Virus record (IMG/VR): IMGVR_UViG_3300042324_002009
Span: 17,709 to 81,708 of that record
DNA: 64,000 nucleotides
Source: a virus
Strand: one strand, 5' to 3'
The first letter of the stretch is position 1; every line of letters begins with the position of its first letter. The translations under genes and the position numbers were made by a program. Below are positions 38,279-64,000 of this stretch, one piece after another. Below the pieces are notes generated by a model that was not told the DNA's origin, did not search any database, and saw only the letters and a list, made by a program, of their open reading frames with translations.

Positions 38279-41200
38279 ATGGCAGTACAACTAAAAATCT
38301 CAAGTATTAAATCAATCAATGGTTCAAGTTTAAATACCATCATTGATTTGTCTAATTTCAACTTTAGCACAATTAAATCAGCAATTGATGAATTCTTAAC
38401 CTCAATTAATTATTCTCAAGTAGATGGTGAGATTGCAGTTGATATTCAAGGAATCTCAACCAATTCAATTATTATCAGAAATGGTTTAACTGTATATGGT
38501 ACTCAACAACAAAATGGCAGCTATCCTGAAGTAATTAAAATGTATCCAACTGGTGCAATCACTGCAAAGAACGTTGTAGTTGAAGATGTACTTGAAGGAA
38601 AACGTCTTAGACTTAAGGTGTATGGAGTACTTCCACCAACTGCTGTTCCTGGTGAAATTGTTTATATTACTGCGCAGAATGGAAGAGTTGAAGGTTTTTA
38701 TGGATATTTACAGTCGACTGGTTGGTGTTTACTTAGCTGCGGCGGAACTGGCGAAGGTATTTGTACAGCATCGGTTACTAGGTCAGTTACTCCAAATGTA
38801 ATATCTGGAGATGGAGAATTATTATCACCTGGTCTATTACCAATACCTGCACCAATTGCAACAACCATGTACTTATTATTTGTTAATGGTCATCAAATAA
38901 CTATTGGAGATGGAGATATTAGCGCCAGTGCCTATTTTAGTAAAGATGGTGGAGTTACTGCAACTATATACGCTCAAGTCGATGTGACTGACGAACTTTA
39001 TTGGAACACAACCTCTGCTGGTTATGGATTAGATAGCGGAGACTTTGTTACCTTAATGTATTCAACAGTTGATGCAAATTGTGCTGGAGCAAATGGTACT
39101 ATTTGTATAACTAATATTTTAACTGCAGGTAATACTGAGTCAGTATTTGCTCAAGTTGGAGTTGATGTTATTATGGAGGATCCAGCTTCAGCTAATTGCC
39201 CAATTACTGTGTGCACTTTACCAATTCCAACAATTGAGCCAGAGGGAATTGATTTACCATATGGATATTTTTTAACTAATTCAGTTTTGGCTTTTGATAT
39301 TTCTACTAGCTGCGCAGGTTGTGCACTTATTGGATTTGGATTACCTCAAACAATGACTGAAACTGAATTTGATTCAGTTAGAATTTTTGAAGAAATTAGC
39401 GGAGTTTATACAGACGTTACTATTTTAACTGGACCGTATGCTCCAAATTATTCTACTCGTACAATTTATGCAGAGATTTGCGATTTTGGAGCATTTTATT
39501 TGATACCAGTAGACTCAGCGATACCAACTACAACTACGACAACTGCTGCGCCTACTACCACTACTACTGCTGCTCCAACTACCACTACTACAACTGCGGC
39601 GGCAACCACTACTACAACGGCTGCACCTACTACTAGTACAACAACCGCTGCACCTACTACTAGTACAACAACCGCTGCTCCGACTACTAGTACAACAACG
39701 GTTGAGCCTACGACTACAACAACGGTTGAGCCTACGACTACAACAACTATTGAGCCTACGACTACAACTACCACAACTAGAGTTGACCCTACTACTACAA
39801 CAACTGAGGCTCCGACTACTAGTACAACAACTGTTGCTGAAACTACTAGTACAACAACAGTAGGTGAAAGAACTACCACTACTACAACTAGGTCAGGCGA
39901 AATAACTACAACTACCACAATTAGTTGTGATGGATTTATTGCAACTATTAATGGACCTGGTCCATTTGATATAATACTAGATGGCTTTGATGGAATTGGA
40001 TATACAATTACACAAGATGGCTCAGATATTACATCCGGTACTCTACCGGATTCTTTACCTGGAATCGGATTAGCAATTGAAAAGCTTTTAACAATTACGT
40101 TAGCGAATGGATGCGTATTTACCTATGCATTTGACGAAGGTTTAGGGACTTGGGAGTTATTTACTGGATCAACTACTACAACGACAACTGAGGCTGCAAC
40201 TACTAGTACCACAACTGCCGCTCCTGAGCCAGCTACAACCACAACAACGGTAGCTCCTACTACAACAACAACAACTGAGGCTTCAACTACGAGTACCACA
40301 ACTAAGGCTGAACCTACTACAACTACAACAACACTGACGGAAATATTTAGAAGTATAAATTGCGAAACTTCAACTGTTATAAATATTGACTTTACTACAA
40401 TATTAGCAATAACTCCAGAAATTGGACAAGTTTATTACTTAACATTTGACGACAGTAGCGAGGGTTGTTATACAATATTGTCAAGTGCTACTGGAACTGC
40501 TAATCGTATTGCAAATACAGCAAGCGATCCTATTGCTGACTGTATGAGCTGTCTACCAACTACAACTACAACAACAATAGCCCCTACTACAACTACCACA
40601 ACTGAACCAATATCCGAACCTACGACTACTACAACACTAGAGCCTGGGCTTACCACTACTACAACCGCTGAACCTAGGCCTACAACTAGTACAACAACGG
40701 TTGAACCTACAACTAGTACAACAACGGTTGAACCTACAACTAGTACAACAACGGTTGAACCTACAACTAGTACAACAACGGTTGAGCCTACTACAACTAC
40801 CACAACAACGGTTGAGCCTACTACAACTACCACAACTGAACCAATATCCGAACCTACGACTACTACAACAACGGTTGAACCTACAACTACTACAACAACT
40901 AGAGTTGACCCTACTACAACTACCACAACTGAACCAATATCCGAACCTACGACTACTACAACAACGGTTGAGCCTACTACAACTACCACAACTGAACCAA
41001 TATCCGAACCTACGACTACTACAACAACGGTTGAGCCTACAACTAGTACAACAACTAGAGTTGACCCTACTACAACTACAACAACGGTTGAGCCTACAAC
41101 TAGTACAACAACGGTTGAGCCTACAACTAGTACAACAACAATAGCCCCTACTACAACTAGTACAACAACGGTTGAACCTACAACTAGTACAACAACAATA

Positions 41201-41572: not shown

Positions 41573-41578
41573 CTTACC

Positions 41579-41606
41579 TAAACTCTATTAAGGTAGTTAG
41601 TATAAT
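41579..41606 (+). promoter_or_regulatory. Putative early/middle promoter TAAAC-N17-TATAAT for the glycosyltransferase (leaderless geometry)
   Basis: TAAAC 41579-41583, TATAAT 41601-41606, ATG at 41612. Confidence 0.7.
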
Positions 41607-41611
41607 TTATT

Positions 41612-42565
41612 ATGTTAACAAAGAAGACTATTTTTATATCAGCACAGCCTGACCATCAATACTTCCATTGGCAAGTTGAGGTGGTAATCCACAATTTTAT
41701 GAAAAATGGAATTAATCCAAATTGGATAGAAATTCTATTTGCCTATAATGACGAGCCTAGCCAAGAAGGTCTTGCCCTAGCTAGAAAATATCCAATGGTT
41801 AGATTCTTTTTCTATAAAAAAAGAATAACTCAAAACTTTGGATACATTCCAATTCTTAGGCCTGATATTCTTGAACAGCATTGGATAAAATATCCAGAAT
41901 TACGTGGTGAAACCGTTTTTTATCATGATTCAGATATTATCTTTAGAGAACTTCCAGATTTCGACTCAATGCATGACAATTTATATTGGTATGTAAGTGA
42001 TACCGTTTCTTATATTGGCGCAAATTATATTAAAAGTAAATCAGAAGACCTATTCATTGACCTTTGTAGTTTAACAAAAATTTCTCCTGAAATAGTAGAA
42101 AAAAATCAAGAAGGGTCAGGCGGTGCTCAATATTTAATGAAAGGCGTTACTTCTGACTTTTGGAAAGAGGTAATTTCAGATTCATTAACTATGTATAAGT
42201 ATATGGCAGATAGAGAAAGTCAAGAACGCAATACATTAACACCAGAAGAGTTAAAAATCTATAATCCTGTACAAAAATGGTGTGCGGATATGTGGGCAGT
42301 TCTTTGGGGTGGCTGGAAAATTGGTGCACAAACAATAATTACACCTGACTTAAATTTTAGTTGGGGAACTTCCTCAATTGAGGATTATGACCGTTGTACA
42401 ATTATGCATAACGCTGGAGTAACAGATGATAGAAAACCTGATCTTTTTTATAAAGCAGATTATCGAGAATCAAGCCCGTTTAATGCGGATCTTTCAAATA
42501 TTAAACCTAATACAGCTTCTGCTAAGTACGTAGATGCAATAATTTACGCAAAAGAAAATAGATAA
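41612..42565 (+). CDS. GT-A fold glycosyltransferase resembling peptidyl-Ser/Hyp O-glycosyltransferases (HPAT/SERGT1, GT95/96-like)
   Basis: YFHWQ, YIPILRPDILEQHW, DxD motif FYHDSDIIF, GGAQYL, KWCADMWAVLWGGWKIG, IMHNAG. The order and spacing parallel the plant YxxWQ / NRP / DxD / WxxEMY motifs. Confidence 0.75.
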   Translation: MLTKKTIFISAQPDHQYFHWQVEVVIHNFMKNGINPNWIEILFAYNDEPSQEGLALARKYPMVRFFFYKKRITQNFGYIPILRPDILEQHWIKYPELRGETVFYHDSDIIFRELPDFDSMHDNLYWYVSDTVSYIGANYIKSKSEDLFIDLCSLTKISPEIVEKNQEGSGGAQYLMKGVTSDFWKEVISDSLTMYKYMADRESQERNTLTPEELKIYNPVQKWCADMWAVLWGGWKIGAQTIITPDLNFSWGTSSIEDYDRCTIMHNAGVTDDRKPDLFYKADYRESSPFNADLSNIKPNTASAKYVDAIIYAKENR

Positions 42566-42597
42566 ACCGGATCTGCCTTATCGCATACAGTATACTG

Positions 42598-42605
42598 ATA
42601 AATAA
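42598..42605 (+). promoter_or_regulatory. Late promoter motif ATAAATAA
   Basis: 30 nt upstream of the first Gly-X-Y gene. Confidence 0.65.
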
Positions 42606-42635
42606 CTGTAGGTAGAAAAATGCAAGTCCAGTATA

Positions 42636-44633
42636 ATGTCTAATAAACTCAAAATAAAACAGGTTGATCTTAGCAACCTAAGTCAAGATAATTCATTAAA
42701 TAAGTTTTTGGTAGTTGATGCTGCTGGTAACGCTTATTATAGTGATTCTCCTGGTGCCGGTTCTGGTGGTTCTGGCTCAAATGGTACGTCGGGTACTTCA
42801 GGTACAAGTGGCCAAGACGGTTCAACTGGTACATCAGGCTCAGATGGAACTTCTGGTACTTCAGGTACAAGTGGCCAAGATGGTTCAACTGGTACTTCTG
42901 GTTCAGATGGAACTTCTGGTACTTCAGGTACAAGCGGTCAAGATGGTTCAACTGGTACTTCTGGTTCAGATGGAACTTCTGGTACTTCAGGTACAAGCGG
43001 TCAAGATGGTTCAACTGGTACTTCTGGTTCAGACGGTACGTCAGGTACTTCAGGTACAAGCGGTCAAGATGGTTCAACTGGTACTTCTGGTTCAGACGGT
43101 ACGTCAGGTACGTCCGGTTCTTCTGGAACAAGTCCATTAGGTTTTTCTTCTGGTACTTCTGGTTCAGATGGAACATCTGGTTCAGACGGTACTTCAGGTA
43201 CAAGCGGAGAAGCAGGTTCTTCAGGTTCAGATGGAACTTCAGGTACAAGTGGCCAAGACGGTTCAACTGGTACTTCCGGCTCAGACGGAACAAGCGGTAC
43301 TTCAGGTATAGATGGAACTAATGGTTCAGACGGAACTTCAGGTACTTCTGGAATTGATGGAACTAATGGTTCAGATGGAACTTCAGGTACTTCTGGAATT
43401 GATGGAACTACTGGTTCAGACGGAACTTCAGGTACAAGCGGACAAGACGGTTCAACTGGTACTTCTGGTTCAGACGGAACTTCTGGAACAAGTGGTGATA
43501 CTTTTACTTATCCAACTGATTTAATTGTTTCATTAACTGGAGGTAGAACTTTTGGACGTTATGTAAGCGGTAGTACTATTCCAGCAACTGGAAAAACTGC
43601 AGCTGAGGTAATTAGTTTAGCAATTGCTGAGCCAATTACTCCAACTGTTGCTCTAACTTCTAGCACATCAATTGCGTTTAATCAAACAGCAATTAGTAAT
43701 GTTCTAAATTTTAGTCATACTATAAATAGTTTAGGAGCAACAATTAGTAGTGTTTCTCTTGAATGGCGAAGAGGCGGTGCAGGTTCATGGGTAGTTTTAT
43801 CAACCTCAACTACTACGCCAAGTACATTTACACATTCACTCACCGATACTAATTATAATACCTCTGCTTTTAATTACAGATATATTGTAACTGATTCAAT
43901 TGGTGCAACTGCGACTGCTACTTTAAATATTACGCCAATCGCATATTCAGCACCATCAATTTCCTTAACAGTTGCTGCAGTTTCAAGTACTTCACCTGAA
44001 ACAAATACAAAAAGAGAAAAAGGAAATATTAATACTAATTTAAGCGGAACTATTACCAGAAATAGTGTAAACAGTGCCTTATCTAGTTATACTTTACAAT
44101 ACTCATTAAATAATAGTTTATGGGTAGATATTGGATCAGAGGTATCAATTGGTCCAGGTACTTCAAGCATTACATTAACTAATCATAATGATATTACGTT
44201 ATTTGCGTCAACTACCATCTATTATAGAGTAAAAGTAATTGATGCATATCAAACATCCTTATCAAGTTTTGCAACTGGTGGAAATACCACAGTTAGTTTT
44301 TTAAATCTAATATTTTACGGACCATCATCCGCAGTTCCAACAACTTCAAGTGATATTAGAGCACTAGGATCCCGAATATTTACGGATGGAAGTAATCCAT
44401 TTAATTTATTAACGGGTACTACTCAAATCAATTTTACAGCAGCAATGCCAGCTACACTAAGTTTAAGCAGTGTAGTTGACTTAGATGCATTAAACGCAGA
44501 TATTACTGGAAATTATGTTTTATCAACATTTAATGTAGTTGACTCCTACGGTACTAACGTATCGTATCGTAACTATACCATGACAAATGCGACTCCTTAT
44601 GGAACATCGCATCGACACCAAATAACTAGATAA
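42636..44633 (+). CDS. Gly-X-Y (Ser/Thr-rich, collagen-like) fibre protein 1 with C-terminal Ig/FN3-like domains
   Basis: 40 + 39 Gly-X-Y triplets (42774-43133, 43152-43502), then beta-sandwich-like domains ([18 protein letters not shown]). Confidence 0.85.
42783..43097 (+). repeat. 5 x 63-nt tandem repeat ([21 protein letters not shown])
   Basis: Five near-identical 21-codon units differing at synonymous sites. Confidence 0.9.
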
Positions 44634-44639
44634 TAGAAT

Positions 44640-47600
44640 ATGTCATTAACTCCAGGATTACAATTACCGTATGGTATACAGCCGGTTAACCCAGTACCAG
44701 TAGATGCTTGGTCCGGACCTTATACCGGGGCAAACGAAACTGCTGCGATTGCTGCAGCAAATACAGCGATCCTTTCAGCCATCCGTTTTCAATCAATGGA
44801 AGTCCGCCTTATCTTCGGCGGCAGCTCTCATAAATATTGGTACCGTGATGGAGTATTAGATACAGATTTAGTAGAATTTGCATCAGGTAGTGGAACTGCT
44901 GGCACAGCCGGTAGTGCAGGAACAAGCGGAACCTCTGGAGCCTCAGGCTCAGATGGAACTTCAGGTACTTCAGGTATAGATGGAACTAATGGTTCAGACG
45001 GAACTTCAGGTACTTCTGGAATTGATGGAACTAATGGTTCAGATGGAACTTCAGGTACTTCAGGTATAGATGGAACTAATGGTTCAGACGGAACTTCAGG
45101 TACTTCTGGAATTGATGGAACTACTGGTTCAGACGGAACTTCAGGTACTTCTGGAATTGATGGAACTAATGGTTCAGATGGAACTTCTGGAACATCAGGA
45201 TCAGATGGAACAAGTGGTACTTCAGGTATTGACGGAGTCTCTGGAACAGATGGTAGCTCAGGTACTTCAGGAGAATCCGGCTCAAATGGAACAAGTGGTA
45301 CTTCAGGAGAATCCGGCTCAAATGGAACAAGTGGTACTTCAGGTTCAAATGGAACAAGCGGTACGTCAGGTATAGATGGAACAAATGGTTCAAATGGAAC
45401 TTCCGGTACAAGCGGTATTGATGGAGTCTCTGGAACAGACGGTAGCTCAGGAACTTCTGGCGAATCAGGTTCAAACGGGTCAGATGGTACGTCCGGTACG
45501 TCAGGCTCAAATGGAACTAGTGGTACTTCAGGTTCAAACGGTACTTCTGGAACTTCTGGTTCCAATGGCTCAAACGGGTCAGACGGAACTTCGGGTACGT
45601 CAGGCATTGACGGAGTCTCTGGAACAGATGGTTCTAGTGGAACTTCAGGAGAATCAGGCTCAAATGGAACTTCTGGAACTTCCGGTTCAGATGGTACAAG
45701 CGGAACTTCAGGTTCAAATGGAACTTCTGGTACGTCTGGAATAGACGGAACAAATGGTTCAGACGGAACTTCCGGTACTTCAGGTATCGATGGAGTCTCT
45801 GGAACTGACGGTAGCTCAGGTACTTCAGGAGAATCAGGTTCAAATGGTTCAGATGGAACAAGCGGAACTTCAGGATCAGATGGAACTTCAGGATCAGATG
45901 GAACATCTGGTACGTCCGGTATAGATGGTACAAATGGAGAAGATGGTTCTTCTGGAACAAGTGGTAGTTCAGGCCTAAGCGGCGTAGACGGTTCAAGCGG
46001 AACTTCAGGCTCAACTGGTTCAGATGGTACTTCAGGTTCAAATGGAACAAGTGGAACTTCAGGATCAAATGGAACAAGTGGAACTTCCGGTACTGCTGGA
46101 ACTTCTGGAACAAGCGGAATAGACGGAACAAACGGTTCAGACGGTACTTCAGGAACAAGTGGAATAGACGGAGTCTCTGGAACAGATGGTAGCTCTGGAA
46201 CTTCTGGCGAATCAGGTTCAAATGGAACAAGTGGAACTTCAGGTATAGATGGAACTAATGGGTCAGATGGAACAAGTGGAACTTCAGGTATAGATGGAAC
46301 TAATGGGTCAGATGGAACAAGCGGTACCTCAGGTACTTCAGGAATAGACGGAGTCTCTGGAACAGACGGTAGCTCAGGTACTTCTGGAGAATCAGGTTCA
46401 AATGGGTCAGACGGTACCTCAGGTACTTCAGGTTCAGATGGAACAAGCGGTACTTCAGGCTCAGACGGAACAAGTGGAACTTCGGGTATAGACGGAACTA
46501 ATGGTTCAGATGGTACTTCTGGTACTTCTGGTATCGATGGAGTCTCTGGGACAGATGGTAGCTCAGGTACTTCAGGAGAATCAGGTTCAAATGGTTCAGA
46601 CGGTACATCAGGTACTTCAGGTATAGATGGAACTAATGGGTCAGACGGTACTTCAGGTACTTCAGGCATAGATGGAACTAATGGTTCAGATGGAACAAGT
46701 GGTACTAGTGGAACTTCAGGTATTGATGGAGTCTCAGGAACAGATGGTTCAAGCGGAACTTCTGGCGAATCAGGTTCAAATGGTTCAGATGGAACTTCTG
46801 GTACTTCAGGATCAGATGGTACATCAGGTTCAGATGGTACTTCAGGTACTTCAGGAATAGATGGAACTAATGGTTCAGATGGTACTTCGGGTACTTCTGG
46901 TATCGATGGAGTCTCTGGGACAGATGGTAGCTCAGGTACTTCTGGAGAATCAGGTTCAAATGGTTCAGATGGAACTTCTGGTACAAGTGGAATAGACGGA
47001 ACAAACGGTTCAGATGGTACAAGTGGAACTTCAGGTTCAGATGGAACAAGCGGTACATCTGGCTCAAACGGATCAGACGGTACTTCTGGAACTAGCGGTA
47101 TTGATGGAGTCTCTGGAACAGATGGTTCTAGTGGAACTTCCGGTTCAGAAGGCACAAGCGGAACTTCCGGTTCAGATGGTACTTCTGGAACTAGTGGTAT
47201 AGATGGAACAAATGGATCAGATGGTACAAGCGGTACTTCAGGCTCAGATGGAACTAGTGGTTCAGATGGAACTTCTGGTACATCAGGAATAGATGGTACT
47301 TCAGGCTCAGATGGTTCTTCTGGAACAAGTGGTAGCTCTGGTTTAAGTGGCGTAGATGGTTCTTCTGGAACATCCGGTTCTATTGGAACTTCTGGAACAA
47401 GCGGTACATCAGGTACATCAGGGTCAGATGGTACTTCTGGTTCAAATGGTACTTCTGGAACAAGCGGGTCAGACGGTACTTCTGGAACAAGCGGGTCAGA
47501 TGGTACTTCAGGAACAAGCGGGTCAGATGGTACTTCCGGTACTTCTGGATTAGACGGAACAAATGGTTCAGACGGTACTTCCGGTACAAGCGGAACTTCA

Positions 47601-51986: not shown

Positions 51987-52002
51987 TACTGGCCTATCTT
52001 AA

Positions 52003-52010
52003 ATAAATAA
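52003..52010 (+). promoter_or_regulatory. Late promoter motif ATAAATAA
   Basis: In the intergenic gap, 57 nt upstream of the ATG at 52068. Confidence 0.55.
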
Positions 52011-52067
52011 TATTGATCAGTAAATAGGCTAAGATTCAGTCTATTCAAAAAAAAGAAATTAAGCTAG

Positions 52068-55000: not shown

Positions 55001-58000
55001 TGGAACTTCAGGTTCAAATGGTTCTTCAGGAACTAGTGGTACTTCAGGTTCGAATGGCTCAAATGGTAGCTCAGGAACTTCTGGTTCTAATGGGTCTTCT
55101 GGTACAAGTGGTACTTCTGGAACTTCTGGTTCAAATGGTTCTTCAGGAACTTCAGGTTCTAATGGCAGTTCAGGTACTTCAGGTTCAAACGGTTCTTCCG
55201 GTACTAGCGGTACTTCTGGTTCAAATGGTTCTTCTGGAACAAGCGGTTCAAATGGTTCAAACGGATCATCCGGTACTTCAGGAACTTCAGGTTCAAACGG
55301 ATCAAATGGTAGCTCAGGTACTTCAGGTTCAAACGGTTCTAGTGGAACATCTGGTACTTCTGGGTCAGATGGAACTTCTGGAACTAGTGGTACTTCAGGT
55401 TCAAACGGCTCAAATGGTAGCTCTGGAACAAGCGGAACTTCTGGTACATCAGGTTCAAATGGTAGCTCTGGAACGAGTGGTTCAAATGGATCAAACGGTA
55501 GCTCAGGTACATCAGGTTCAAATGGTAGCTCTGGAACTTCAGGTTCTAACGGGTCAAATGGATCATCTGGAACATCTGGTTCTAATGGATCAAATGGAAG
55601 CTCTGGTACTTCAGGAACAAGCGGTTCAAATGGATCATCTGGTACTTCAGGAACTTCAGGTTCAAATGGAAGCTCTGGAACATCTGGTTCTAATGGTAGT
55701 TCAGGAACATCAGGTACATCAGGTACGTCTGGAACATCAGGTTCAAATGGCTCTTCTGGAACTTCCGGTTCTAATGGCTCAAATGGTTCTTCTGGAACTT
55801 CCGGCACAAGCGGATCAACCGGTTCTTCAGGAACAAGTGGAACATCAGGATCAAATGGATCAAGCGGTACTGCTGGTTCTTCTGGAACAAGCGGATCAAA
55901 CGGTTCTTCCGGTACTTCAGGTTCAAATGGTTCAAGTGGAACTTCCGGTACTTCAGGTTCAAACGGATCACATGGTTCTTCTGGAACTTCAGGTTCAACT
56001 GGTTCTTCTGGAACAAGTGGAACCTCTGGAACTTCAGGTTCAACTGGTTCTTCTGGAACAAGTGGAACCTCTGGTACTTCTGGTTCAACTGGAACTTCAG
56101 GAACATCAGGTTCAAACGGCAGCTCAGGAACTTCTGGAACATCAGGTTCAAACGGCAGCTCAGGAACAAGCGGTTCTTCAGGAACTTCGGGTACTTCAGG
56201 TTCTAATGGTTCTTCTGGAACATCCGGTACTTCCGGTACATCTGGTTCAAACGGATCAAGTGGTACTTCTGGTTCTAATGGATCAAATGGAAGCTCAGGA
56301 ACTAGTGGCACATCCGGTTCAAATGGCTCTAATGGAAGCTCTGGTACTTCAGGTTCTAATGGATCAAATGGTAGCTCTGGTACATCAGGTACTTCTGGAA
56401 CATCCGGCTCAAATGGTTCTAACGGAAGCTCAGGAACTTCTGGTTCAAGTGGTACCTCAGGTACTTCCGGTTCTAACGGCTCTTCTGGTACTTCAGGCTC
56501 AAACGGTTCTTCTGGAACTTCAGGGTCAAATGGATCAAACGGTTCTTCTGGTACAAGTGGAACTTCAGGTTCAAATGGAACAAGCGGAACTAGCGGTTCT
56601 AATGGTTCAAGCGGAACTTCAGGTTCTAATGGATCAAGCGGAACCTCAGGTACTTCAGGAACATCCGGTTCGAATGGTTCAAATGGATCAAGCGGTACTT
56701 CAGGTTCTAATGGATCAAATGGAAGCTCGGGAACTTCTGGTTCTAATGGAAGCTCAGGTACGTCAGGTTCTAATGGTTCAAGTGGAACATCTGGTACTTC
56801 AGGTTCAAACGGCTCAAACGGTAGCTCAGGAACTTCAGGTTCTAATGGTTCAAGTGGAACCTCAGGTACTTCAGGTTCTAACGGAACCTCAGGAACATCA
56901 GGCTCAAATGGATCTAATGGTAGTTCAGGTACATCAGGTTCAAATGGATCTAATGGAAGCTCGGGAACAAGTGGTACATCAGGAACATCCGGTACTTCAG
57001 GTTCTTCTGGAACATCAGGCACTTCCGGTTCAAACGGTTCTTCTGGAACTTCTGGTTCTAATGGATCAAACGGTAGCTCAGGTACTTCAGGTTCTAATGG
57101 CTCTTCTGGTACTTCTGGAACATCAGGTTCAACTGGTACATCAGGAACATCAGGTTCAAGTGGAACTTCTGGAACTCGTGGTACATCAGGTACGTCAGGG
57201 ACAGCCGGTTCTTCTGGAACTTCTGGCACAAGCGGATCTACTGGAACCTCAGGAACAAGTGGAATAAGCGGAGTAGATGGATCTAATGGTACATCAGGAA
57301 CCTCCGGCACCTCAGGTTCGAATGGATCTTCTGGAACAAGCGGAACATCTGGCTCTAATGGTTCTTCAGGATCAAGTGGAACCTCAGGAACATCTGGTTC
57401 AACTGGTACTTCTGGAACAAGCGGCTCAACTGGAACTTCTGGAACGTCAGGTTCTTCTGGAACGTCAGGTTCTTCTGGAACTTCTGGAACAAGTGGTACA
57501 TCAGGTTCAAACGGTTCAAGTGGAACTTCAGGTTCTAACGGCTCAAACGGTAGCTCAGGAACTTCTGGAACAAGAGGTACGTCTGGAACAAGCGGTTCTA
57601 ATGGCTCAAGCGGTACTTCTGGAACTTCAGGCTCAACTGGTACTAGTGGTACTTCAGGTTCAAATGGTTCTTCCGGTTCAAGCGGTACCTCAGGTACTTC
57701 CGGTTCTAATGGCTCTTCTGGTACTTCAGGTTCAAACGGATCAAATGGTTCTTCTGGAACTTCAGGTTCAAATGGATCAAATGGTAGTTCCGGTACATCT
57801 GGTACTTCTGGTTCTAACGGATCAAATGGTACTTCAGGCTCAAATGGTTCAAACGGTTCAAGTGGAACTTCAGGTTCTAATGGATCTTCTGGAACATCTG
57901 GTACCTCTGGTTCTAATGGTTCTTCAGGAACCTCAGGTTCAACTGGCTCAAATGGTTCAAGTGGAACATCAGGTTCAAACGGTAGCTCAGGAACTTCAGG

Positions 58001-61000
58001 TTCTAATGGATCAAATGGTTCAAGCGGAACTTCAGGTTCAAATGGTTCTTCTGGAACTTCAGGCTCAAATGGTTCTTCTGGAACTTCAGGTTCTAATGGA
58101 TCAAACGGTTCATCTGGAACTTCAGGTTCTAATGGATCAAGTGGTACATCTGGTTCAAACGGTTCTTCTGGAACTTCAGGTTCTAATGGTTCTTCTGGAA
58201 CAAGCGGAACCTCCGGTTCTAATGGTTCTTCTGGAACAAGCGGAACCTCCGGTTCTAATGGTAGTTCAGGTACTTCAGGTTCTAATGGATCTAATGGTTC
58301 TTCTGGTACTTCAGGTTCTAATGGATCAAACGGTTCATCTGGAACTTCTGGTTCTAATGGCTCAAGTGGTACATCTGGTTCAAACGGTTCTTCTGGAACT
58401 TCAGGTTCTAATGGATCAAATGGAAGCTCTGGTACTTCAGGTTCTAATGGATCAAATGGAAGCTCTGGAACTTCAGGTTCTAATGGATCAAATGGAAGCT
58501 CTGGAACTAGTGGAACCTCAGGGTCTAATGGTTCAAATGGAAGCTCTGGAACTTCAGGCTCAACTGGTACTTCAGGTACATCAGGTTCTAACGGTACTTC
58601 AGGAACTTCAGGTTCAAATGGTTCAAGCGGTACATCAGGTTTAAATGGCTCAAATGGTTCAAGTGGAACATCAGGCTCAAATGGTTCTTCTGGAACTTCA
58701 GGTTCTAATGGATCTTCTGGAACATCTGGTACCTCTGGTTCTAATGGTTCTTCTGGAACAAGCGGAACCTCCGGCTCAAATGGATCAAATGGTTCTTCTG
58801 GTACTTCTGGAACCTCAGGAACAAGCGGAACAACTGGTTCAACTGGAACAAGCGGAACTTCAGGTTCAAGTGGATCAATTGGAACAAGTGGAACTAGTGG
58901 AACTTCAGGTACATCCGGTTCAAACGGTTCTTCTGGAACTTCAGGTTCTAATGGATCAAATGGAAGCTCAGGAACTTCGGGTTCTAATGGAAGCTCAGGT
59001 ACTTCAGGTTCAAATGGATCAAACGGTTCTTCAGGAACTTCAGGTTCAAACGGCTCTAATGGAAGCTCAGGTACTTCAGGTTCAAATGGATCAAACGGTT
59101 CTTCAGGAACTTCAGGTTCAAACGGCTCTAATGGTAGCTCAGGTACGTCAGGCTCAAATGGATCTAATGGTAGCTCGGGAACTTCAGGTTCTTCTGGAAC
59201 AAGAGGTACGTCAGGTACTTCCGGTACTAGTGGAACCTCAGGTTCTAATGGTAGCTCAGGAACTAGTGGAACCTCAGGTTCAAGCGGCTCAAATGGTTCT
59301 TCTGGAACTTCTGGAACATCTGGTTCTAATGGTAGTTCAGGTACTTCTGGTACATCTGGCTCTAATGGATCAAATGGTTCTTCTGGTACTTCAGGTTCTA
59401 ATGGATCAAACGGAAGCTCAGGTACATCAGGTTCTAATGGTTCTTCTGGAACAAGCGGTAGCTTAGGAACTTCTGGAACATCAGGTTCAAGCGGCTCAAA
59501 TGGTTCTTCTGGAACTTCTGGAACATCTGGTTCTAATGGTTCTTCTGGTACTTCTGGTTCAAATGGATCAAACGGAAGCTCAGGAACATCAGGTTCTAAT
59601 GGATCGAGTGGAAGCTCAGGAACGTCAGGTTCTAATGGTTCTTCTGGAACAAGCGGTAGCTTAGGAACTTCTGGAACATCAGGTTCAAACGGCTCAAATG
59701 GTTCTTCTGGTACTTCTGGTTCAAATGGATCAAATGGTTCTTCTGGTACTTCTGGTTCAAATGGATCAAACGGAAGCTCAGGAACATCAGGTTCTAATGG
59801 ATCGAGTGGAAGCTCAGGAACGTCAGGTTCTAATGGATCAAGTGGAACTTCCGGTTCAAGTGGAACTTCTGGTTCTAATGGATCAAACGGAAGCTCAGGA
59901 ACTTCAGGTTCAAATGGTTCTTCAGGAACTTCAGGTTCAAATGGCTCAAATGGTTCAAGTGGAACTTCAGGTACTTCAGGTTCAAATGGATCAAACGGTT
60001 CAAGCGGAACATCAGGTTCAAATGGATCTAATGGATCAAGCGGAACATCCGGTACATCTGGTTCAAACGGATCAAATGGAAGCTCAGGAACTTCAGGTTC
60101 AAACGGCAGCTCTGGTACGTCAGGTACATCTGGTTCAAACGGATCAAATGGTTCTTCAGGTACTTCAGGCTCTAATGGATCTTCTGGAACTTCTGGTTCT
60201 AATGGCTCAAGCGGTACATCCGGCTCTAATGGTTCAAATGGTAGTTCAGGAACTTCAGGTTCTTCTGGAACAAGAGGTACTTCTGGTACTTCTGGTACTA
60301 GTGGAACTTCAGGAACATCAGGCTCAAACGGATCAAATGGTTCTTCTGGAACATCTGGAACTTCAGGTTCAAACGGCTCAAATGGAAGCTCTGGAACTAG
60401 TGGAACCTCAGGGTCTAATGGTTCATCTGGAACTTCTGGTTCTAATGGTTCAAGCGGTTCATCTGGTACTTCTGGAACAAGAGGTACTTCTGGAACTTCT
60501 GGTACTTCAGGTACTTCCGGTTCTAATGGTTCTTCTGGAACTTCTGGTACTTCCGGTTCTAATGGTTCTTCTGGAACAAGTGGTACGTCTGGTTCAAATG
60601 GATCAAATGGAAGCTCTGGTACCTCTGGTTCTAATGGATCAAACGGAAGCTCAGGAACTTCAGGTTCTAATGGCTCAAGTGGAACATCTGGTTCAAACGG
60701 ATCAAATGGAAGCTCTGGAACTTCTGGTACATCTGGTTCAAATGGCTCAAGCGGAAGCTCAGGAACTTCAGGCTCTAATGGAAGCTCAGGAACGTCGGGT
60801 TCAAACGGATCAAACGGTTCTTCAGGAACTTCTGGTTCAAGCGGTACATCCGGTTCTTCTGGCACAAGAGGTACTTCAGGTACTAGTGGTACCTCAGGTA
60901 CATCAGGTTCAACTGGTACTTCTGGAACAAGCGGTACTTCTGGTTCTAATGGATCAAATGGAAGCTCAGGAACTTCAGGTTCAAACGGTTCAAACGGGTC

Positions 61001-64000
61001 AAGCGGAACTTCAGGTTCTTCCGGCTTAACTGGTAGCTCAGGAACTAGTGGAACTTCCGGTTCTAATGGTTCTAGTGGTACATCAGGTTCAAACGGTTCT
61101 AATGGTTCTTCAGGAACGTCAGGGTCAAACGGTTCTAACGGTTCTTCAGGAACGTCAGGGTCAAACGGATCTAATGGTTCTTCTGGAACTTCAGGTTCTA
61201 ACGGTAGCTCAGGAACATCTGGTTCAAATGGATCAAACGGTAGCTCAGGAACATCTGGTTCAAATGGCTCTAATGGTAGCTCAGGAACTTCAGGATCTTC
61301 AGGAACAAGAGGTACTTCAGGTACTTCTGGTACTAGTGGAACTTCAGGTTCAAACGGTTCATCTGGAACTTCAGGAACAAGCGGTTCAAACGGTTCAAGT
61401 GGAACTTCAGGTTCTAATGGATCAAATGGAAGCTCAGGAACTTCAGGTTCAAACGGTTCTTCTGGCACATCAGGTTCTAATGGTTCTTCTGGAACTTCAG
61501 GAACCAGAGGTACTTCTGGTACATCTGGAACAAGCGGAACTTCCGGTTCAAACGGATCAAACGGAAGTTCTGGTACATCAGGTTCTAATGGCTCAAATGG
61601 ATCAAGCGGTACTTCTGGTTCTAATGGCTCAAATGGTAGTTCAGGAACTTCAGGTTCTAATGGATCAAATGGAAGCTCTGGTACCTCAGGGTCTAATGGT
61701 TCTAATGGTTCTTCTGGAACTAGTGGAACTTCAGGTTCTAATGGATCTTCTGGAACATCTGGTACTTCAGGTTCTAATGGCTCAAACGGTAGCTCTGGTA
61801 CTTCCGGCTCAAATGGTTCTTCAGGAACATCTGGTTCAAATGGATCAAACGGTTCAAGTGGAACGTCAGGTTCTAATGGTTCTTCTGGAACTTCAGGAAC
61901 AAGAGGTTCTTCTGGAACTTCGGGAACAAGCGGAACATCAGGTTCAAATGGTTCTAACGGCTCAAGTGGTACCTCAGGTTCTAATGGATCAAATGGTTCT
62001 TCTGGAACTTCTGGTTCTAATGGATCAAATGGTTCTTCTGGAACTTCAGGTTCTAACGGTAGCTCAGGTACTTCCGGTTCTAACGGCTCAAGCGGAACCT
62101 CAGGTTCAAACGGCTCAAATGGTTCAAGTGGAACTTCAGGTTCAAACGGCTCAAATGGTAGCTCAGGAACATCTGGTTCAAACGGAAGCTCAGGAACTTC
62201 AGGTACTTCAGGTTCAAATGGTTCTAATGGCTCAAGTGGAACATCAGGTTCAAATGGTTCTTCAGGAACATCAGGTTCAAATGGATCAAACGGTTCAAGC
62301 GGTACTTCTGGTTCAAATGGTTCAAACGGTTCTAGTGGAACTTCAGGTACCTCAGGCTCTAACGGCTCAAATGGTAGCTCAGGAACATCCGGCTCAAATG
62401 GTTCTTCAGGAACTTCTGGAACAAGAGGTACTTCAGGTACTTCTGGTTCAAACGGTAGCTCAGGAACATCCGGCTCAAATGGTTCAAACGGTTCAAGCGG
62501 TACGTCTGGCTCAAACGGTTCTTCGGGAACTTCTGGTTCAAATGGTAGCTCAGGAACCTCTGGTTCAAACGGTTCAAGCGGTAGCTCAGGAACATCCGGC
62601 TCAAATGGTTCAAACGGTTCAAGCGGTACTTCTGGCTCAAATGGAAGCTCAGGTACTTCAGGTTCTAATGGTTCTAACGGAAGTTCTGGTACATCAGGTT
62701 CAAATGGCTCAAATGGATCTTCAGGTACATCAGGTTCAAATGGTTCTAACGGAAGTTCTGGTACATCAGGTTCAAATGGCTCTAACGGAAGTTCTGGTAC
62801 ATCAGGTTCTAATGGTTCTTCAGGAACTTCCGGCTCAAACGGCTCAAACGGCTCTAGTGGAACTTCTGGTTCAAATGGCAGTTCCGGTACTTCAGGAACA
62901 CGTGGTACTTCTGGTACATCCGGTTCTAATGGAAGCTCAGGAACGTCCGGCACATCAGGCTCAACTGGAGCAAGTGGAGCAGCAATTAGTGACGGTTGGG
63001 ATTGGGGTACTCCATTAGCCAGTACTAAAATTTATAGTAATAATGGTAATTTAGATGCTGCAACTTCTCTATTAAACATAGCGGAAGTTTCATTAACTTC
63101 AACCAATTATAGTGGAGTGTATCCATCAATTGGTACTGGCACACTAATTAAGACAAATGGTGGAATTGGTGGTCAAATTGTATATTATAGAACAACTGGT
63201 GTAGGTTTTGATACTGGAATATATTGGGAATTTCCAGTAACTTATGTTTCAGGTACACCTTGGACGCCATCTGCTGGCACTGATATTATTGTTGACATAT
63301 CTGCTGCAGGTGTATCAGGCTCGTCTGGTACTTCAGGAACACGTGGTACTTCAGGTACTTCAGGCTCAAATGGTTCTTCTGGAACCTCAGGTTCTAATGG
63401 ATCAAATGGAAGCTCGGGTACATCAGGTTCTAATGGTTCTTCTGGAACTTCAGGTTCTAACGGATCAAACGGTAGCTCTGGTTCTTCTGGAACACGAGGT
63501 ACGTCAGGAACCTCTGGTACATCTGGTTCAAACGGTTCTTCTGGAACATCAGGTACTTCAGGTTCTAATGGCAGCTCAGGTACATCAGGAACTTCAGGAT
63601 CAGCTGGTACTAGTGGTACAAGTTTTATATGGAAAGGTATTTGGGTTGGTGGTACTCTTTATGCGATTAATGATGTAATTTCATTTAACGGAAGTTCTTA
63701 TATTTCTATAGTATCAAGTAATATAGGAAATAACCCGTCTACTAGTCCAGCGCAATGGACGCTAATGGCATCTGCTGGGTCAAACGGCTCATCAGGTACA
63801 AGTGGTACATCAGGCTCAAATGGTAGCTCTGGAACTTCTGGTTCAAATGGCTCAAATGGAAGTTCTGGAACTTCAGGAACAAGAGGTACTTCTGGAACTT
63901 CTGGTTCAAATGGATCATCTGGTACTTCTGGTACATCCGGTTCAAACGGTTCTTCTGGAACTTCTGGTTCTAATGGATCAAATGGCTCATCAGGTACAAG
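52068..64000 (+). CDS. Giant Gly-X-Y fibre protein 3 (>3970 aa, 3'-truncated; absent from ORF track) with delta-60-repeat beta-propeller and CBM5/12-like module
   Basis: ATG at 52068 (MSYKITSPGGVELND...), and the same frame reads TSGSNGSNGSSGT at the window end. Contains delta-60/DUF5122-like repeats (VQADGKILVGGVFTTFDGNTRNRLIRLNSDGTEDTAF, ~52380-53460), a Gly-X-Y block at 53481-62984, an insert at 62985-63308, and WKGIWVGGTLYAINDVISFNGSSY...QWTLMA (~63630-63770). Confidence 0.9.
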   Translation, partial: MSYKITSPGGVELNDSSANPKLGLLIPTIDDITNASGSAKEGSVIYNKLDNNIYRFTGAAWESAAGSSGTSGTSGSSGTAGTSGSSAIDGISNESFNSSLVTAFTNTTNDSEVITIVNQLSTKIVIGGYFTTFKGATRKSLVRLNIDGSEDIGFYSNLGTGFSAGTYVETVSVQADEKLIIGGDFTTFNTNTRNRLIRLNSNGTEDTAFYTNLGLGFNGTVIQSAVQADGKILVGGVFTTFDGNTRNRLIRLNSDGTEDTAFYTNLGSGITSQVNAITIQSDNSILIGTAAGLIKLNANGTLDSAFNSNLGSNAVDILAIACQADGLILVGGGFTTFNGTTKNGLIRLNSNGTEDTAFYTKIGTGFTGAFTPLGFTINVQSDGRILVGGGFDSFNGGTRHKLVRLFADGTEDIRFYAALGSAVGPGSPSGSQINTILLKNNLILVGGAFTTLNGVTLNNLFSLYNNSNLSSGTVGSSGSNGTNGSSGSSGTSGTSGESGSNGSSGTSGSNGSNGSSGTSGSNGSHGSSGTSGTSGSNGSSGTSGSNGSNGSSGTSGSNGSSGTSGTSGSNGSNGSSGTSGSSGSNGSSGTSGSSGSNGSSGTSGSNGSSGTSGSNGSNGSSGTSGSNGSSGTSGTSGSNGSSGTSGSNGSNGSSGTSGSNGSSGSSGTSGSNGSSGTSGSSGSTGTSGTSGSNGSSGTSGSNGSSGTSGSNGSNGSSGTSGTSGSNGSSGTSGTSGSTGSNGSSGTSGSNGSNGSSGTSGTSGSNGSSGTSGSNGSSGTSGSNGSNGSSGTSGSNGSNGSSGTSGTSGSNGLNGSSGTSGSNGSSGTSGSNGSSGTSGTSGSNGSSGTSGSNGSSGTSGTSGSNGSSGTSGSNGSSGTSGSSGTSGSNGSNGSSGTSGESGSNGTSGTSGTSGSTGTSGTSGTSGTSGTSGSNGSSGTSGSNGSSGTSGSNGSNGSSGTSGSNGSSGTSGSNGSNGSSGTSGSNGSSGTSGTSGSNGSNGSSGTSGSNGSSGTSGTSGTSGSNGSSGTSGSNGSSGTSGSNGSSGTSGTSGSNGSSGTSGSNGSNGSSGTSGTSGSNGSNGSSGTSGSNGSSGTSGTSGSDGTSGTSGTSGSNGSNGSSGTSGTSGTSGSNGSSGTSGSNGSNGSSGTSGSNGSSGTSGSNGSNGSSGTSGSNGSNGSSGTSGTSGSNGSSGTSGTSGSNGSSGTSGSNGSSGTSGTSGTSGTSGSNGSSGTSGSNGSNGSSGTSGTSGSTGSSGTSGTSGSNGSSGTAGSSGTSGSNGSSGTSGSNGSSGTSGTSGSNGSHGSSGTSGSTGSSGTSGTSGTSGSTGSSGTSGTSGTSGSTGTSGTSGSNGSSGTSGTSGSNGSSGTSGSSGTSGTSGSNGSSGTSGTSGTSGSNGSSGTSGSNGSNGSSGTSGTSGSNGSNGSSGTSGSNGSNGSSGTSGTSGTSGSNGSNGSSGTSGSSGTSGTSGSNGSSGTSGSNGSSGTSGSNGSNGSSGTSGTSGSNGTSGTSGSNGSSGTSGSNGSSGTSGTSGTSGSNGSNGSSGTSGSNGSNGSSGTSGSNGSSGTSGSNGSSGTSGTSGSNGSNGSSGTSGSNGSSGTSGTSGSNGTSGTSGSNGSNGSSGTSGSNGSNGSSGTSGTSGTSGTSGSSGTSGTSGSNGSSGTSGSNGSNGSSGTSGSNGSSGTSGTSGSTGTSGTSGSSGTSGTRGTSGTSGTAGSSGTSGTSGSTGTSGTSGISGVDGSNGTSGTSGTSGSNGSSGTSGTSGSNGSSGSSGTSGTSGSTGTSGTSGSTGTSGTSGSSGTSGSSGTSGTSGTSGSNGSSGTSGSNGSNGSSGTSGTRGTSGTSGSNGSSGTSGTSGSTGTSGTSGSNGSSGSSGTSGTSGSNGSSGTSGSNGSNGSSGTSGSNGSNGSSGTSGTSGSNGSNGTSGSNGSNGSSGTSGSNGSSGTSGTSGSNGSSGTSGSTGSNGSSGTSGSNGSSGTSGSNGSNGSSGTSGSNGSSGTSGSNGSSGTSGSNGSNGSSGTSGSNGSSGTSGSNGSSGTSGSNGSSGTSGTSGSNGSSGTSGTSGSNGSSGTSGSNGSNGSSGTSGSNGSNGSSGTSGSNGSSGTSGSNGSSGTSGSNGSNGSSGTSGSNGSNGSSGTSGSNGSNGSSGTSGTSGSNGSNGSSGTSGSTGTSGTSGSNGTSGTSGSNGSSGTSGLNGSNGSSGTSGSNGSSGTSGSNGSSGTSGTSGSNGSSGTSGTSGSNGSNGSSGTSGTSGTSGTTGSTGTSGTSGSSGSIGTSGTSGTSGTSGSNGSSGTSGSNGSNGSSGTSGSNGSSGTSGSNGSNGSSGTSGSNGSNGSSGTSGSNGSNGSSGTSGSNGSNGSSGTSGSNGSNGSSGTSGSSGTRGTSGTSGTSGTSGSNGSSGTSGTSGSSGSNGSSGTSGTSGSNGSSGTSGTSGSNGSNGSSGTSGSNGSNGSSGTSGSNGSSGTSGSLGTSGTSGSSGSNGSSGTSGTSGSNGSSGTSGSNGSNGSSGTSGSNGSSGSSGTSGSNGSSGTSGSLGTSGTSGSNGSNGSSGTSGSNGSNGSSGTSGSNGSNGSSGTSGSNGSSGSSGTSGSNGSSGTSGSSGTSGSNGSNGSSGTSGSNGSSGTSGSNGSNGSSGTSGTSGSNGSNGSSGTSGSNGSNGSSGTSGTSGSNGSNGSSGTSGSNGSSGTSGTSGSNGSNGSSGTSGSNGSSGTSGSNGSSGTSGSNGSNGSSGTSGSSGTRGTSGTSGTSGTSGTSGSNGSNGSSGTSGTSGSNGSNGSSGTSGTSGSNGSSGTSGSNGSSGSSGTSGTRGTSGTSGTSGTSGSNGSSGTSGTSGSNGSSGTSGTSGSNGSNGSSGTSGSNGSNGSSGTSGSNGSSGTSGSNGSNGSSGTSGTSGSNGSSGSSGTSGSNGSSGTSGSNGSNGSSGTSGSSGTSGSSGTRGTSGTSGTSGTSGSTGTSGTSGTSGSNGSNGSSGTSGSNGSNGSSGTSGSSGLTGSSGTSGTSGSNGSSGTSGSNGSNGSSGTSGSNGSNGSSGTSGSNGSNGSSGTSGSNGSSGTSGSNGSNGSSGTSGSNGSNGSSGTSGSSGTRGTSGTSGTSGTSGSNGSSGTSGTSGSNGSSGTSGSNGSNGSSGTSGSNGSSGTSGSNGSSGTSGTRGTSGTSGTSGTSGSNGSNGSSGTSGSNGSNGSSGTSGSNGSNGSSGTSGSNGSNGSSGTSGSNGSNGSSGTSGTSGSNGSSGTSGTSGSNGSNGSSGTSGSNGSSGTSGSNGSNGSSGTSGSNGSSGTSGTRGSSGTSGTSGTSGSNGSNGSSGTSGSNGSNGSSGTSGSNGSNGSSGTSGSNGSSGTSGSNGSSGTSGSNGSNGSSGTSGSNGSNGSSGTSGSNGSSGTSGTSGSNGSNGSSGTSGSNGSSGTSGSNGSNGSSGTSGSNGSNGSSGTSGTSGSNGSNGSSGTSGSNGSSGTSGTRGTSGTSGSNGSSGTSGSNGSNGSSGTSGSNGSSGTSGSNGSSGTSGSNGSSGSSGTSGSNGSNGSSGTSGSNGSSGTSGSNGSNGSSGTSGSNGSNGSSGTSGSNGSNGSSGTSGSNGSNGSSGTSGSNGSSGTSGSNGSNGSSGTSGSNGSSGTSGTRGTSGTSGSNGSSGTSGTSGSTGASGAAISDGWDWGTPLASTKIYSNNGNLDAATSLLNIAEVSLTSTNYSGVYPSIGTGTLIKTNGGIGGQIVYYRTTGVGFDTGIYWEFPVTYVSGTPWTPSAGTDIIVDISAAGVSGSSGTSGTRGTSGTSGSNGSSGTSGSNGSNGSSGTSGSNGSSGTSGSNGSNGSSGSSGTRGTSGTSGTSGSNGSSGTSGTSGSNGSSGTSGTSGSAGTSGTSFIWKGIWVGGTLYAINDVISFNGSSYISIVSSNIGNNPSTSPAQWTLMASAGSNGSSGTSGTSGSNGSSGTSGSNGSNGSSGTSGTRGTSGTSGSNGSSGTSGTSGSNGSSGTSGSNGSNGSSGT
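53481..62984 (+). repeat. 9,504-nt low-complexity Gly-X-Y coding array (GSN/GSS/GTS), 1,056 triplets
   Basis: 9-nt periodicity GGN-(TCN/ACN/AGY)-(AAY/TCN/AGY). Length is exactly divisible by 9, and the antisense shadow ORF shows Pro at every third residue. Confidence 0.92.

Follow-up and report, generated by a model that had tools for sequence, protein, structure and literature searches.

Introduction

Can a phage encode, side by side, a glycosyltransferase and the hydroxyl-rich virion proteins that the enzyme would decorate? The question is raised by the last 64 kb (64,000 nucleotides, nt; hereafter the window) of an 81.7-kb viral contig of the IMG/VR database (IMGVR_UViG_3300042324_002009), rated 30% complete, whose gene content points to a large tailed (jumbo) phage. 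Between positions 38279 and 64000, five open reading frames (ORFs) follow one another head to tail on the + strand: a gene for a mucin-like protein with threonine (Thr) tracts, hereafter the poly-Thr gene, a gene for a 317-residue enzyme, and three genes for collagen-like fibre proteins that contain glycine-X-Y (Gly-X-Y) triplets. We call these five genes the cassette; its four non-enzyme proteins contain 3,745 serine (Ser) and Thr residues in total.

The original prediction, made from the letters of the window, saw in this arrangement a system by which the phage O-glycosylates its own proline (Pro)-free fibres, and it placed all five ORFs correctly in order, strand and coordinates. Here we report that the enzyme is accompanied across phages by threonine runs on virion proteins and that, judging from comparative sequence data, O-glycosylation of these runs is its probable role.

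The cassette enzyme has a predicted GT8-like fold

On the strength of its AlphaFold2 model, we can confidently describe the 317-residue protein as a soluble GT-A glycosyltransferase with a GT8-like predicted fold, closest to GT8-type retaining enzymes. The model, built with 46 sequences, has a mean predicted local distance difference test (pLDDT) score of 97.1 and consists of a single Rossmann-like alpha/beta/alpha domain, that is, a GT-A fold, with no signal peptide and no membrane segment. The original prediction was therefore right to place a glycosyltransferase gene in the cassette: the product is a soluble enzyme of glycosyltransferase fold, encoded within a virion module. The best matches among solved structures are GT8-type retaining enzymes, and Foldseek concurs. 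They comprise glycogenin (score 15.0; root-mean-square deviation 3.7 with 226 residues aligned), the Skp1 alpha-galactosyltransferase (14.6), the catalytic domain of UGGT (14.2), LgtC and the C-terminal domain of WbbM (13.8 each), LARGE1 (13.6) and GlyE (13.1), all at about 7-13% sequence identity. Residues D106, D108 and H266 are invariant in the 46 sequences, which are 33-85% identical, and the DxD formed by D106 and D108 sits after strand E101-105 of the model, as is the rule in GT-A enzymes; this DxD and the downstream His would be the metal-binding set of GT8. In its predicted fold, and perhaps in its DxD and downstream His, the enzyme is like the GT8-type enzymes glycogenin, LgtC, GlyE and Skp1 AgtA, and the fold of these is common to UGGT (GT24) as well.

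The enzyme differs from CAZy GT8, however, in that its sequence does not place it there. It matched no family, GT8 included, in Pfam (E <= 1) or NCBIfam, none of its 46 relatives matched a GT8 Pfam model, and no match was found among PDB sequences, where a profile search returned only spurious hits to TAL-effector repeats. What it does match is phrog_4417, a PHROG family of unknown function. With 2,054 proteins among 2,350 candidates in 90% clusters and 837 representatives at 50% identity, this family is large, and it has relatives in 77 GenBank phage records, mostly of Lactobacillus, Enterococcus, Staphylococcus and Lactococcus phages; the closest GenBank phage match to our enzyme, at 40% identity, comes from Chryseobacterium phage MA9V-3. 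Longer members are fused to GT2, GT6, DXD sugar-binding or radical-SAM/SPASM domains, five of the ten fused proteins scanned having no family. Some relatives have a radical-SAM/SPASM protein either encoded after the enzyme (L038) or fused to it (P0181), a combination that recalls peptide-modifying gene clusters. Homologues of 500-590 residues whose C-terminal half of about 250 residues is family-less (L100-L166) are common in chromosomes of Sphingobacteriia and Chitinophagia.

The plant and algal peptidyl O-glycosyltransferases HPAT (GT95) and SGT1/SERGT1 (GT96) are proposed to transfer the first sugar onto hydroxyl residues of repetitive structural proteins, which is the same kind of work that we propose for the phage enzyme. 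The original prediction went further and likened its motifs to those of plant HPAT and SERGT1; for HPAT, our sequence tests did not bear this out. The Pfam HPAT profile (PF23452) did not match the enzyme, nor the corresponding gene in five phage genomes (E <= 10), and among the 46 relatives it gave a single hit at E = 0.23; the solved structures and Foldseek point to GT8-like folds instead. The sole hint of HPAT was one cluster of language-model look-alikes of the enzyme, in which 10% of the members are annotated as HPAT. A search for DUF7164 in the five phage genomes gave no match and, as the control genomes gave none either, is uninformative.

Thr tracts and the enzyme occur together across phages

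Of at least 595 IMG/VR loci, we examined the neighbourhoods of the best 80, with enzyme relatives of 40-79% identity; genes were taken, as a rough call, to be the longest ORFs that do not overlap. When the enzyme was clustered at 90% identity, 60 loci remained, one of which has no upstream gene. With a dense Thr tract defined as at least 10 Thr in 15 residues, the gene immediately before the enzyme (position -1) carries such a tract in 45 of 59 loci. The corresponding counts are 13/56 at position -2, 5/54 at -3, 8/202 at positions -4 to -8 and 3/378 at positions +1 to +8. The linkage of the enzyme to Ser/Thr-repeat genes in relatives, by which the original prediction had proposed to be judged, is therefore very strong as far as poly-Thr is concerned. 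It does not follow a single protein family: the tract-bearing proteins form 13 homology groups with no similarity to one another outside the tracts, including two major tail proteins and a virion structural protein. Small domains, 60-90 residues long, usually stand between the tracts.

Cultured phages display the same pairing. In phiFL1A, both the capsid protein gp45 and the major tail protein gp50 end in poly-Thr C-terminal tails, and gp50 directly precedes the enzyme, gp51. Chryseobacterium phage MA9V-3 has poly-Thr in the -1 gene of the enzyme, and VPE25 has a poly-Thr tail on its major tail protein and the enzyme-family gene in its head module. Thr-rich tracts are likewise found in the gene or genes before the enzyme in phiCTP1, Lactobacillus phage 521B (as PTTV repeats on an Ig-like protein) and Staphylococcus phage RQ1, and the enzyme gene adjoins the major tail protein gene in phiFL1A, phiCTP1 and RQ1. 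In the largest group of small relatives, the gene at position -2 gave only hypothetical proteins in tblastn; its homologue in Flavobacterium phage immuto lies within the baseplate/tail-fibre module.

The tract-bearing protein of the window begins with a folded region of about 420 residues, after which Thr tracts alternate with small modules that contain cysteine. The N-terminal region has no family in Pfam or PHROG. Its AlphaFold2 model, built with seven sequences, is poor (pLDDT 56, with residues 1-162 below 50), and a fold search with this model gave weak beta-sandwich matches only.

Poly-Thr tails and the enzyme change together in a tail-tube family

A further comparison is offered by a single family of virion proteins. 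To keep poly-Thr tails from seeding the search, we queried IMG/VR with only the tail-free core of one Firmicutes-type siphophage tail-tube family and obtained 80 tail-tube loci; seven with less than 1,200 nt downstream (L184, L195, L198, L213, L221, L244 and L247) were dropped, leaving 73. A poly-Thr C-terminal tail is present in 17 of the 73, and in all 17 the enzyme is encoded at most 2.5 kb downstream, whereas none of the 56 tail-less tail-tube proteins has the enzyme downstream. On a maximum-likelihood tree of the tail-tube core, the joint state of tail and enzyme changes at least 10 times, and at least four of these changes are forced by well-supported branches. Tail and enzyme have thus come and gone together repeatedly, a pattern that is hard to explain unless the enzyme acts on the tail or needs it. 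It is genomic co-variation alone that makes these hydroxyl-rich tracts on virion proteins look enzyme-dependent.

Gene context of the cassette

The window carries a neck-like gene upstream of the cassette, which places the cassette in the virion module, with the enzyme gene between the neck-like and the fibre genes. The neck-like product also matches Pfam T4_neck-protein at 3.6e-04, below the family cut-off. Between this gene and the poly-Thr gene stands a gene for a protein of the Amidoligase_2 family, which may be another protein-modifying enzyme of the cassette; it is found directly 5' of the poly-Thr gene in all close relatives, and the order 690/450/poly-Thr/enzyme recurs in L005-L016, G001 and G002.

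Two near-complete relatives, one of 271 kb rated 100% complete and one of 253 kb rated 93%, extend this picture beyond the end of our contig. Their order is neck-like gene, amidoligase, poly-Thr gene, enzyme, fibre genes that include giant Pro-free Gly-X-Y genes, and finally glycan enzymes: a GT4+FkbM fusion, a Methyltransf_24 protein and a methyltransferase+GT9 fusion in the 271-kb relative, and a GT4+GT9 fusion in the 253-kb one. In this lineage, then, the fibre genes are flanked by glycan-building enzymes, by the cassette enzyme at one end and by GT4, GT9 and methyltransferase genes at the other. The window's contig stops before the point at which the GT4, GT9 and methyltransferase genes stand. 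In small relatives, the genes that follow the enzyme encode a GT6-family transferase (two loci), FkbM and other methyltransferases, and radical-SAM/SPASM proteins, five of the ten scanned being without a family.

The original prediction also held that late-type promoters precede every gene of the cassette except that of the enzyme. This stands in part. The late-promoter-like motif ATAAATAA is found 20-70 nt before the ATG of the genes at 38279, 42636 and 52068 and of three other + strand genes, which accounts for six of its seven + strand sites, and the enzyme gene, with the poly-Thr gene 39 nt upstream, has none. However, the gene at 44640 also lacks it, starting 6 nt past the end of the preceding gene, and the count in the whole window (7 versus 5.7 expected) is not above chance, so that we regard the promoter claim as partly confirmed, by the position of the motif alone. 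Scans for sigma-70-type promoters (46 versus 52 expected) and for terminators (10 versus 10.7) were at chance level, and no terminator-like site was found between the poly-Thr gene and the enzyme gene. Transcription of the enzyme gene by read-through from the poly-Thr gene is as likely as transcription from a promoter of its own.

Pro-free collagen-like fibre genes

The three fibre genes are consecutive, rich in Ser/Thr and Pro-free, and our triplet counts agree with the original prediction on this point. Fibre protein 1, which matches Pfam Collagen at 6.3e-33 as well as PHROG tail-fibre families, ends in a C-terminal domain; fibre protein 2 has non-repeat N-terminal, middle and C-terminal domains; fibre protein 3 is cut by the end of the contig. 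Their uninterrupted runs are of 41, 39, 495, 189 and 1,056 triplets. In all 1,886 triplets of the three proteins there is not one Pro or lysine and there are only 14 arginines, so that neither the stabilising Pro or hydroxyproline nor the charge pairs of collagen-like proteins are found in them. Thr or Ser occupies position X in 84-99% of triplets; position Y is mostly Ser (55-64%), then aspartate or asparagine. With the collagen rise of 0.286 nm per residue, the 1,056-triplet run would span about 0.9 micrometre if triple-helical.

Fibre gene 3 runs off the contig end, as is typical where assemblies break in repeats. Giant Pro-free Gly-X-Y genes recur in independent assemblies of relatives (3,730 residues in the 271-kb relative, 2,514 and 2,810 residues in a second and 2,432 residues in a third), which argues that such genes are real, although exact repeat numbers taken from short-read assemblies are uncertain. 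The same genome offers a contrast: a fibre protein encoded outside the cassette has 5 Pro in its 10 Gly-X-Y triplets, against none in the 1,886 triplets inside. This difference is suggestive.

Discussion

We propose that the enzyme is a cytoplasmic, nucleotide-sugar-dependent GT-A glycosyltransferase of GT8-like fold, belonging to an uncharacterised and mainly phage-borne family whose conserved functional partner would be a threonine run on a virion protein. In the jumbo phage of the window, this partner and presumed main acceptor would be the 1,097-residue mucin-like protein encoded 39 nt upstream. Late in infection, the enzyme would most likely add a first sugar to Thr hydroxyls of this protein, and further enzymes, such as those encoded by the GT4, GT9 and methyltransferase genes beyond the fibre genes in complete relatives, would probably extend and methylate the glycan. 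The particle would in this way gain a mucin-like, glycosylated appendage. To judge from position only, the three Pro-free collagen-like fibre proteins, encoded in the same enzyme-bracketed block, may be further acceptors. What the data show directly are the fold, the invariant DxD and His residues, the gene order, the co-occurrence and the co-variation; the acceptor, the donor sugar, the linkage and any effect on the particle we infer.

Several observations weigh against this proposal. The evidence for Thr glycosylation is comparative throughout, the virion location of the window's poly-Thr protein is deduced from the position of its gene, and 14 of the 59 IMG/VR loci have no dense tract at -1. 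The enzyme's fold is also like that of the lipopolysaccharide and O-antigen enzymes LgtC and WbbM. Homologues in prokaryote genomes were scanned using one genome per species (80 loci). The short stand-alone forms occur in prophage-like settings or on Bacteroidota-binned contigs, including an 85%-identical copy on a 254-kb contig, and they have poly-Thr at -1 in 11 of 26 loci (3 of the 29 short-form loci have no upstream gene). By our threshold the other 15 have no tract at -1, although several carry shorter tails below it. Of the 51 fused forms, 420-900 residues long and encoded in Chitinophaga, Pedobacter, Sphingobacterium and Mucilaginibacter chromosomes, none is preceded by a poly-Thr gene at -1; two of five such loci inspected have Wzz and GT1 genes close by. 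Acting on proteins is therefore no intrinsic trait of the family, and such a role would apply to the phage-type form only. The likeness to LgtC and to the C-terminal domain of WbbM, the fused Bacteroidota homologues devoid of poly-Thr neighbours and the two loci near Wzz or GT1 would all suit an enzyme that makes or alters a polysaccharide, be it a host surface glycan (for serotype conversion or superinfection exclusion, as with prophage TarP) or a lipid-carrier glycan, the poly-Thr proteins being unrelated neighbours. We consider this improbable, because the stand-alone form tracks poly-Thr tails (17/17 versus 0/56, over at least 4-10 changes), because the tail is part of a structural gene and not a separate passenger gene, and because the enzyme gene stands in late structural modules rather than beside lysogeny genes. 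More improbable still, to the point that we would be surprised to see it confirmed, is a role in protecting the phage genome from restriction, with hypermodified DNA bases, or a glycan already on the DNA, as the substrate of the enzyme. The contig does carry a gene of the thymidylate-synthase family, at only 71.8 bits, that is compatible with a pyrimidine hydroxymethylase, so that the phage DNA may contain modified bases. Glucosylated DNA is described for VPE25 in PMC4999554, and phage GT-A enzymes that glycosylate DNA exist, some of them GT8-like, according to a preprint by Pyle et al. That preprint gives clustering with thymidylate-synthase-like or 5mYOX base-modifying genes as the mark of DNA-hypermodifying glycosyltransferases, yet the contig's only thymidylate-synthase-family gene lies about 58 kb from the enzyme. 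In VPE25 itself, the T4-like beta-glucosyltransferase and the thymidylate-synthase-like gene are at 31-35 kb, and the enzyme-family gene is 42 kb apart from them, at 77 kb, among head and tail genes. Temperate phiFL-type phages, moreover, carry the enzyme beside the tail-tube gene, and a DNA substrate would leave the co-variation with poly-Thr tails without explanation.

Glycosylation of Thr runs on virion proteins is thus the reading that we retain, and what has to be weighed within it is how far the activity reaches. The enzyme could glycosylate the poly-Thr protein only, the Pro-free fibres being sugar-free, and either stable as they are or not triple-helical, and the fibre genes would be adjacent only because such genes tend to cluster. 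That reading can coexist with the mechanism proposed above and competes only with the claim of the original prediction about the fibres; we give it close to an even chance. Linkage of the enzyme to Gly-X-Y genes, which that prediction expected in relatives, holds for close relatives and fails beyond them: a Gly-X-Y gene stands at +1 of the enzyme in 5 of the 60 loci, all from close relatives, which leaves fibre glycosylation to be deduced from position. The fibre-1 orthologue of the complete relative (627 residues) has no Gly-X-Y run, while the enzyme is kept. A reciprocal search with the C-terminal domain of fibre protein 1 found only eight loci, five of which have Pro-free Ser/Thr Gly-X-Y genes and no enzyme within about 10 kb; when these five contigs were searched whole, the enzyme was found in one. 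The other four, however, are fragments, 22-43% complete, and both near-complete relatives have their fibre genes bracketed by the enzyme and by GT4, GT9 and methyltransferase genes. The within-genome contrast in Pro (5 in 10 triplets outside, 0 in 1,886 inside) also weighs against sugar-free fibres. All in all, glycosylation of the collagen-like fibres in addition to the poly-Thr protein seems to us a possibility on the unlikely side.

Virion glycosylation has, to our knowledge, been demonstrated experimentally for mycobacteriophages only; a 2023 study by Freeman et al. in Cell Host Microbe reportedly established it for Che8 and others. In PMC12619734, which cites that study, mycobacteriophage virion glycans are placed at the C-termini of capsid and tail-tube subunits, a precedent that removes the novelty of a phage glycosylating its own virion proteins. 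There too, phage glycosyltransferase genes stand among structural genes and the acceptors are tails of capsid and tail-tube proteins, and phiFL1A and its Firmicutes relatives share this layout, their capsid and tail-tube proteins ending in poly-Thr C-terminal tails beside the enzyme. By analogy, the enzyme/poly-Thr pairing would follow the same logic with a different enzyme family, tag and host range. It differs from the mycobacteriophage system in the phyla of the hosts (Bacillota, and Bacteroidota-type phages), in an enzyme family for which Pfam has no model and in a near-pure Thr acceptor, and it is known from genes alone. In the window, the acceptor would furthermore be a 1,097-residue beads-on-a-string protein, not a short tail, and giant collagen-like genes are part of the block. 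Full-text searches of the literature found no description of the enzyme family or of poly-Thr tags on phage virions.

For the fibres, the relevant comparison is with Bacillus BclA, the Mimivirus fibril and collagen-like proteins and the cuticle collagen of Riftia, which are glycosylated, have long Thr-rich Gly-X-Y repeats and are associated with glycosyltransferases. In Riftia, sugar on Thr stabilises Pro-poor triple helices. The window's fibres are alike in their long Thr-rich Gly-X-Y repeats and associated glycosyltransferase, but they have mostly Thr in X and Ser in Y instead of Thr in Y, contain no Pro at all and have runs of up to 1,056 triplets. They add the question of whether glycosylated Ser/Thr can replace proline in micrometre-long collagen-like fibres.

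If our reading is right, sugar-coated virions would not be peculiar to mycobacteriophages but a common trait of the phages that infect lactic acid bacteria, enterococci, staphylococci, clostridia and aquatic Bacteroidota. This would be relevant to the pharmacology of phage therapy (antibody recognition and clearance) and to the adhesion of phages to mucus or particles, and a poly-Thr tag with one small enzyme would amount to a simple, portable means of protein glycosylation in bacteria. It would also bear on the annotation of a nameless enzyme family of some 2,000 members. Since the pairing is present in the cultured model phages VPE25, phiFL1A and Chryseobacterium phage MA9V-3, the hypothesis is directly testable. 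One may go further and imagine a phage system that has escaped description although it is widespread, reaching from small siphophages of the Firmicutes to jumbo phages of Bacteroidota type. In it, a GT8-like family would recognise near-pure Thr runs as portable glycosylation tags on capsid, tail-tube and fibre proteins, and in the jumbo lineage of the window the same island would also glycosylate Pro-free collagen-like fibres of up to about 0.9 micrometre, with a chitin-binding-like module, as a sugar-stabilised adhesive coat. Taken whole, this broader picture is speculative, and we think it rather unlikely to hold in all its parts.

Other features of the window

Table 1. Coordinates of the cassette and of other features, in window positions unless another contig or locus is named.
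Feature	Position	Strand	Details
GroEL, ribonucleotide reductase, SSB and late sigma factor-like genes	left part of window		
GroEL-type chaperonin	11548-13128	-	phrog_5725 at 3.1e-157
Late sigma factor-like gene	14798-15217	+	phrog_234 at 4.9e-17
Very large structural genes	right part of window	+	one block
Fibre protein outside cassette	31413..33941	+	10 Gly-X-Y triplets, 5 Pro; phrog_5073 tail fiber at 2.2e-04
263-residue protein	33938-34729	-	opposite strand, amid + strand structural block
Neck/head-closure-like protein	34807..36870	+	687 residues; phrog_679 head closure at 9.3e-07
Amidoligase_2-family protein	36879..38231	+	450 residues; Pfam PF12224 at 2.7e-07
Late-promoter-like motif ATAAATAA	38251..38258, 42598-42605, 52003-52010	+	upstream of poly-Thr and fibre genes
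Mucin-like poly-Thr protein	38279..41572	+	1,097 residues; 334 Thr; 37% Ser+Thr
Predicted GT-A fold, GT8-like glycosyltransferase	41612..42565	+	317 residues; phrog_4417 at 2.7e-64
Fibre protein 1	42636..44633	+	665 residues; 80 Pro-free Gly-X-Y triplets; C-terminal domain of about 375 residues
Fibre protein 2	44640..51986	+	2,448 residues; 684 Pro-free triplets in runs of 495 and 189
Fibre protein 3	52068..64000	+	>3,977 residues; at least 1,122 triplets, one run of 1,056; cut by contig end
Beta-propeller-like region, N-terminal in fibre protein 3	52326-53480	+	Scone-R at 7e-10
Chitin-binding-domain-like insert	63615-63785	+	50 residues, non-collagen; chitinase A region 4tx8 at E = 5e-4; ChiA1 ChBD 1ed7 at E = 0.084
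Thymidylate-synthase-family gene, upstream of window	G000:C1:1091-1702	-	71.8 bits
Radical-SAM/SPASM gene after enzyme, in a relative	L038:10921-12003		

With its chitin-binding-domain-like insert, fibre protein 3 may bind chitin or another polysaccharide. Its beta-propeller-like region is made up of repeats, each about 50 residues long, with matches to designed and PQQ-type beta-propellers. The minus-strand gene that interrupts the structural block has no family in Pfam or PHROG, and both near-complete relatives have it in the corresponding position (263 and 265 residues). The GroEL-type chaperonin and the late sigma factor-like protein give the phage a likeness to the 'moraphages', recently named large aquatic phages with predicted Bacteroidota hosts (PMC12619734).

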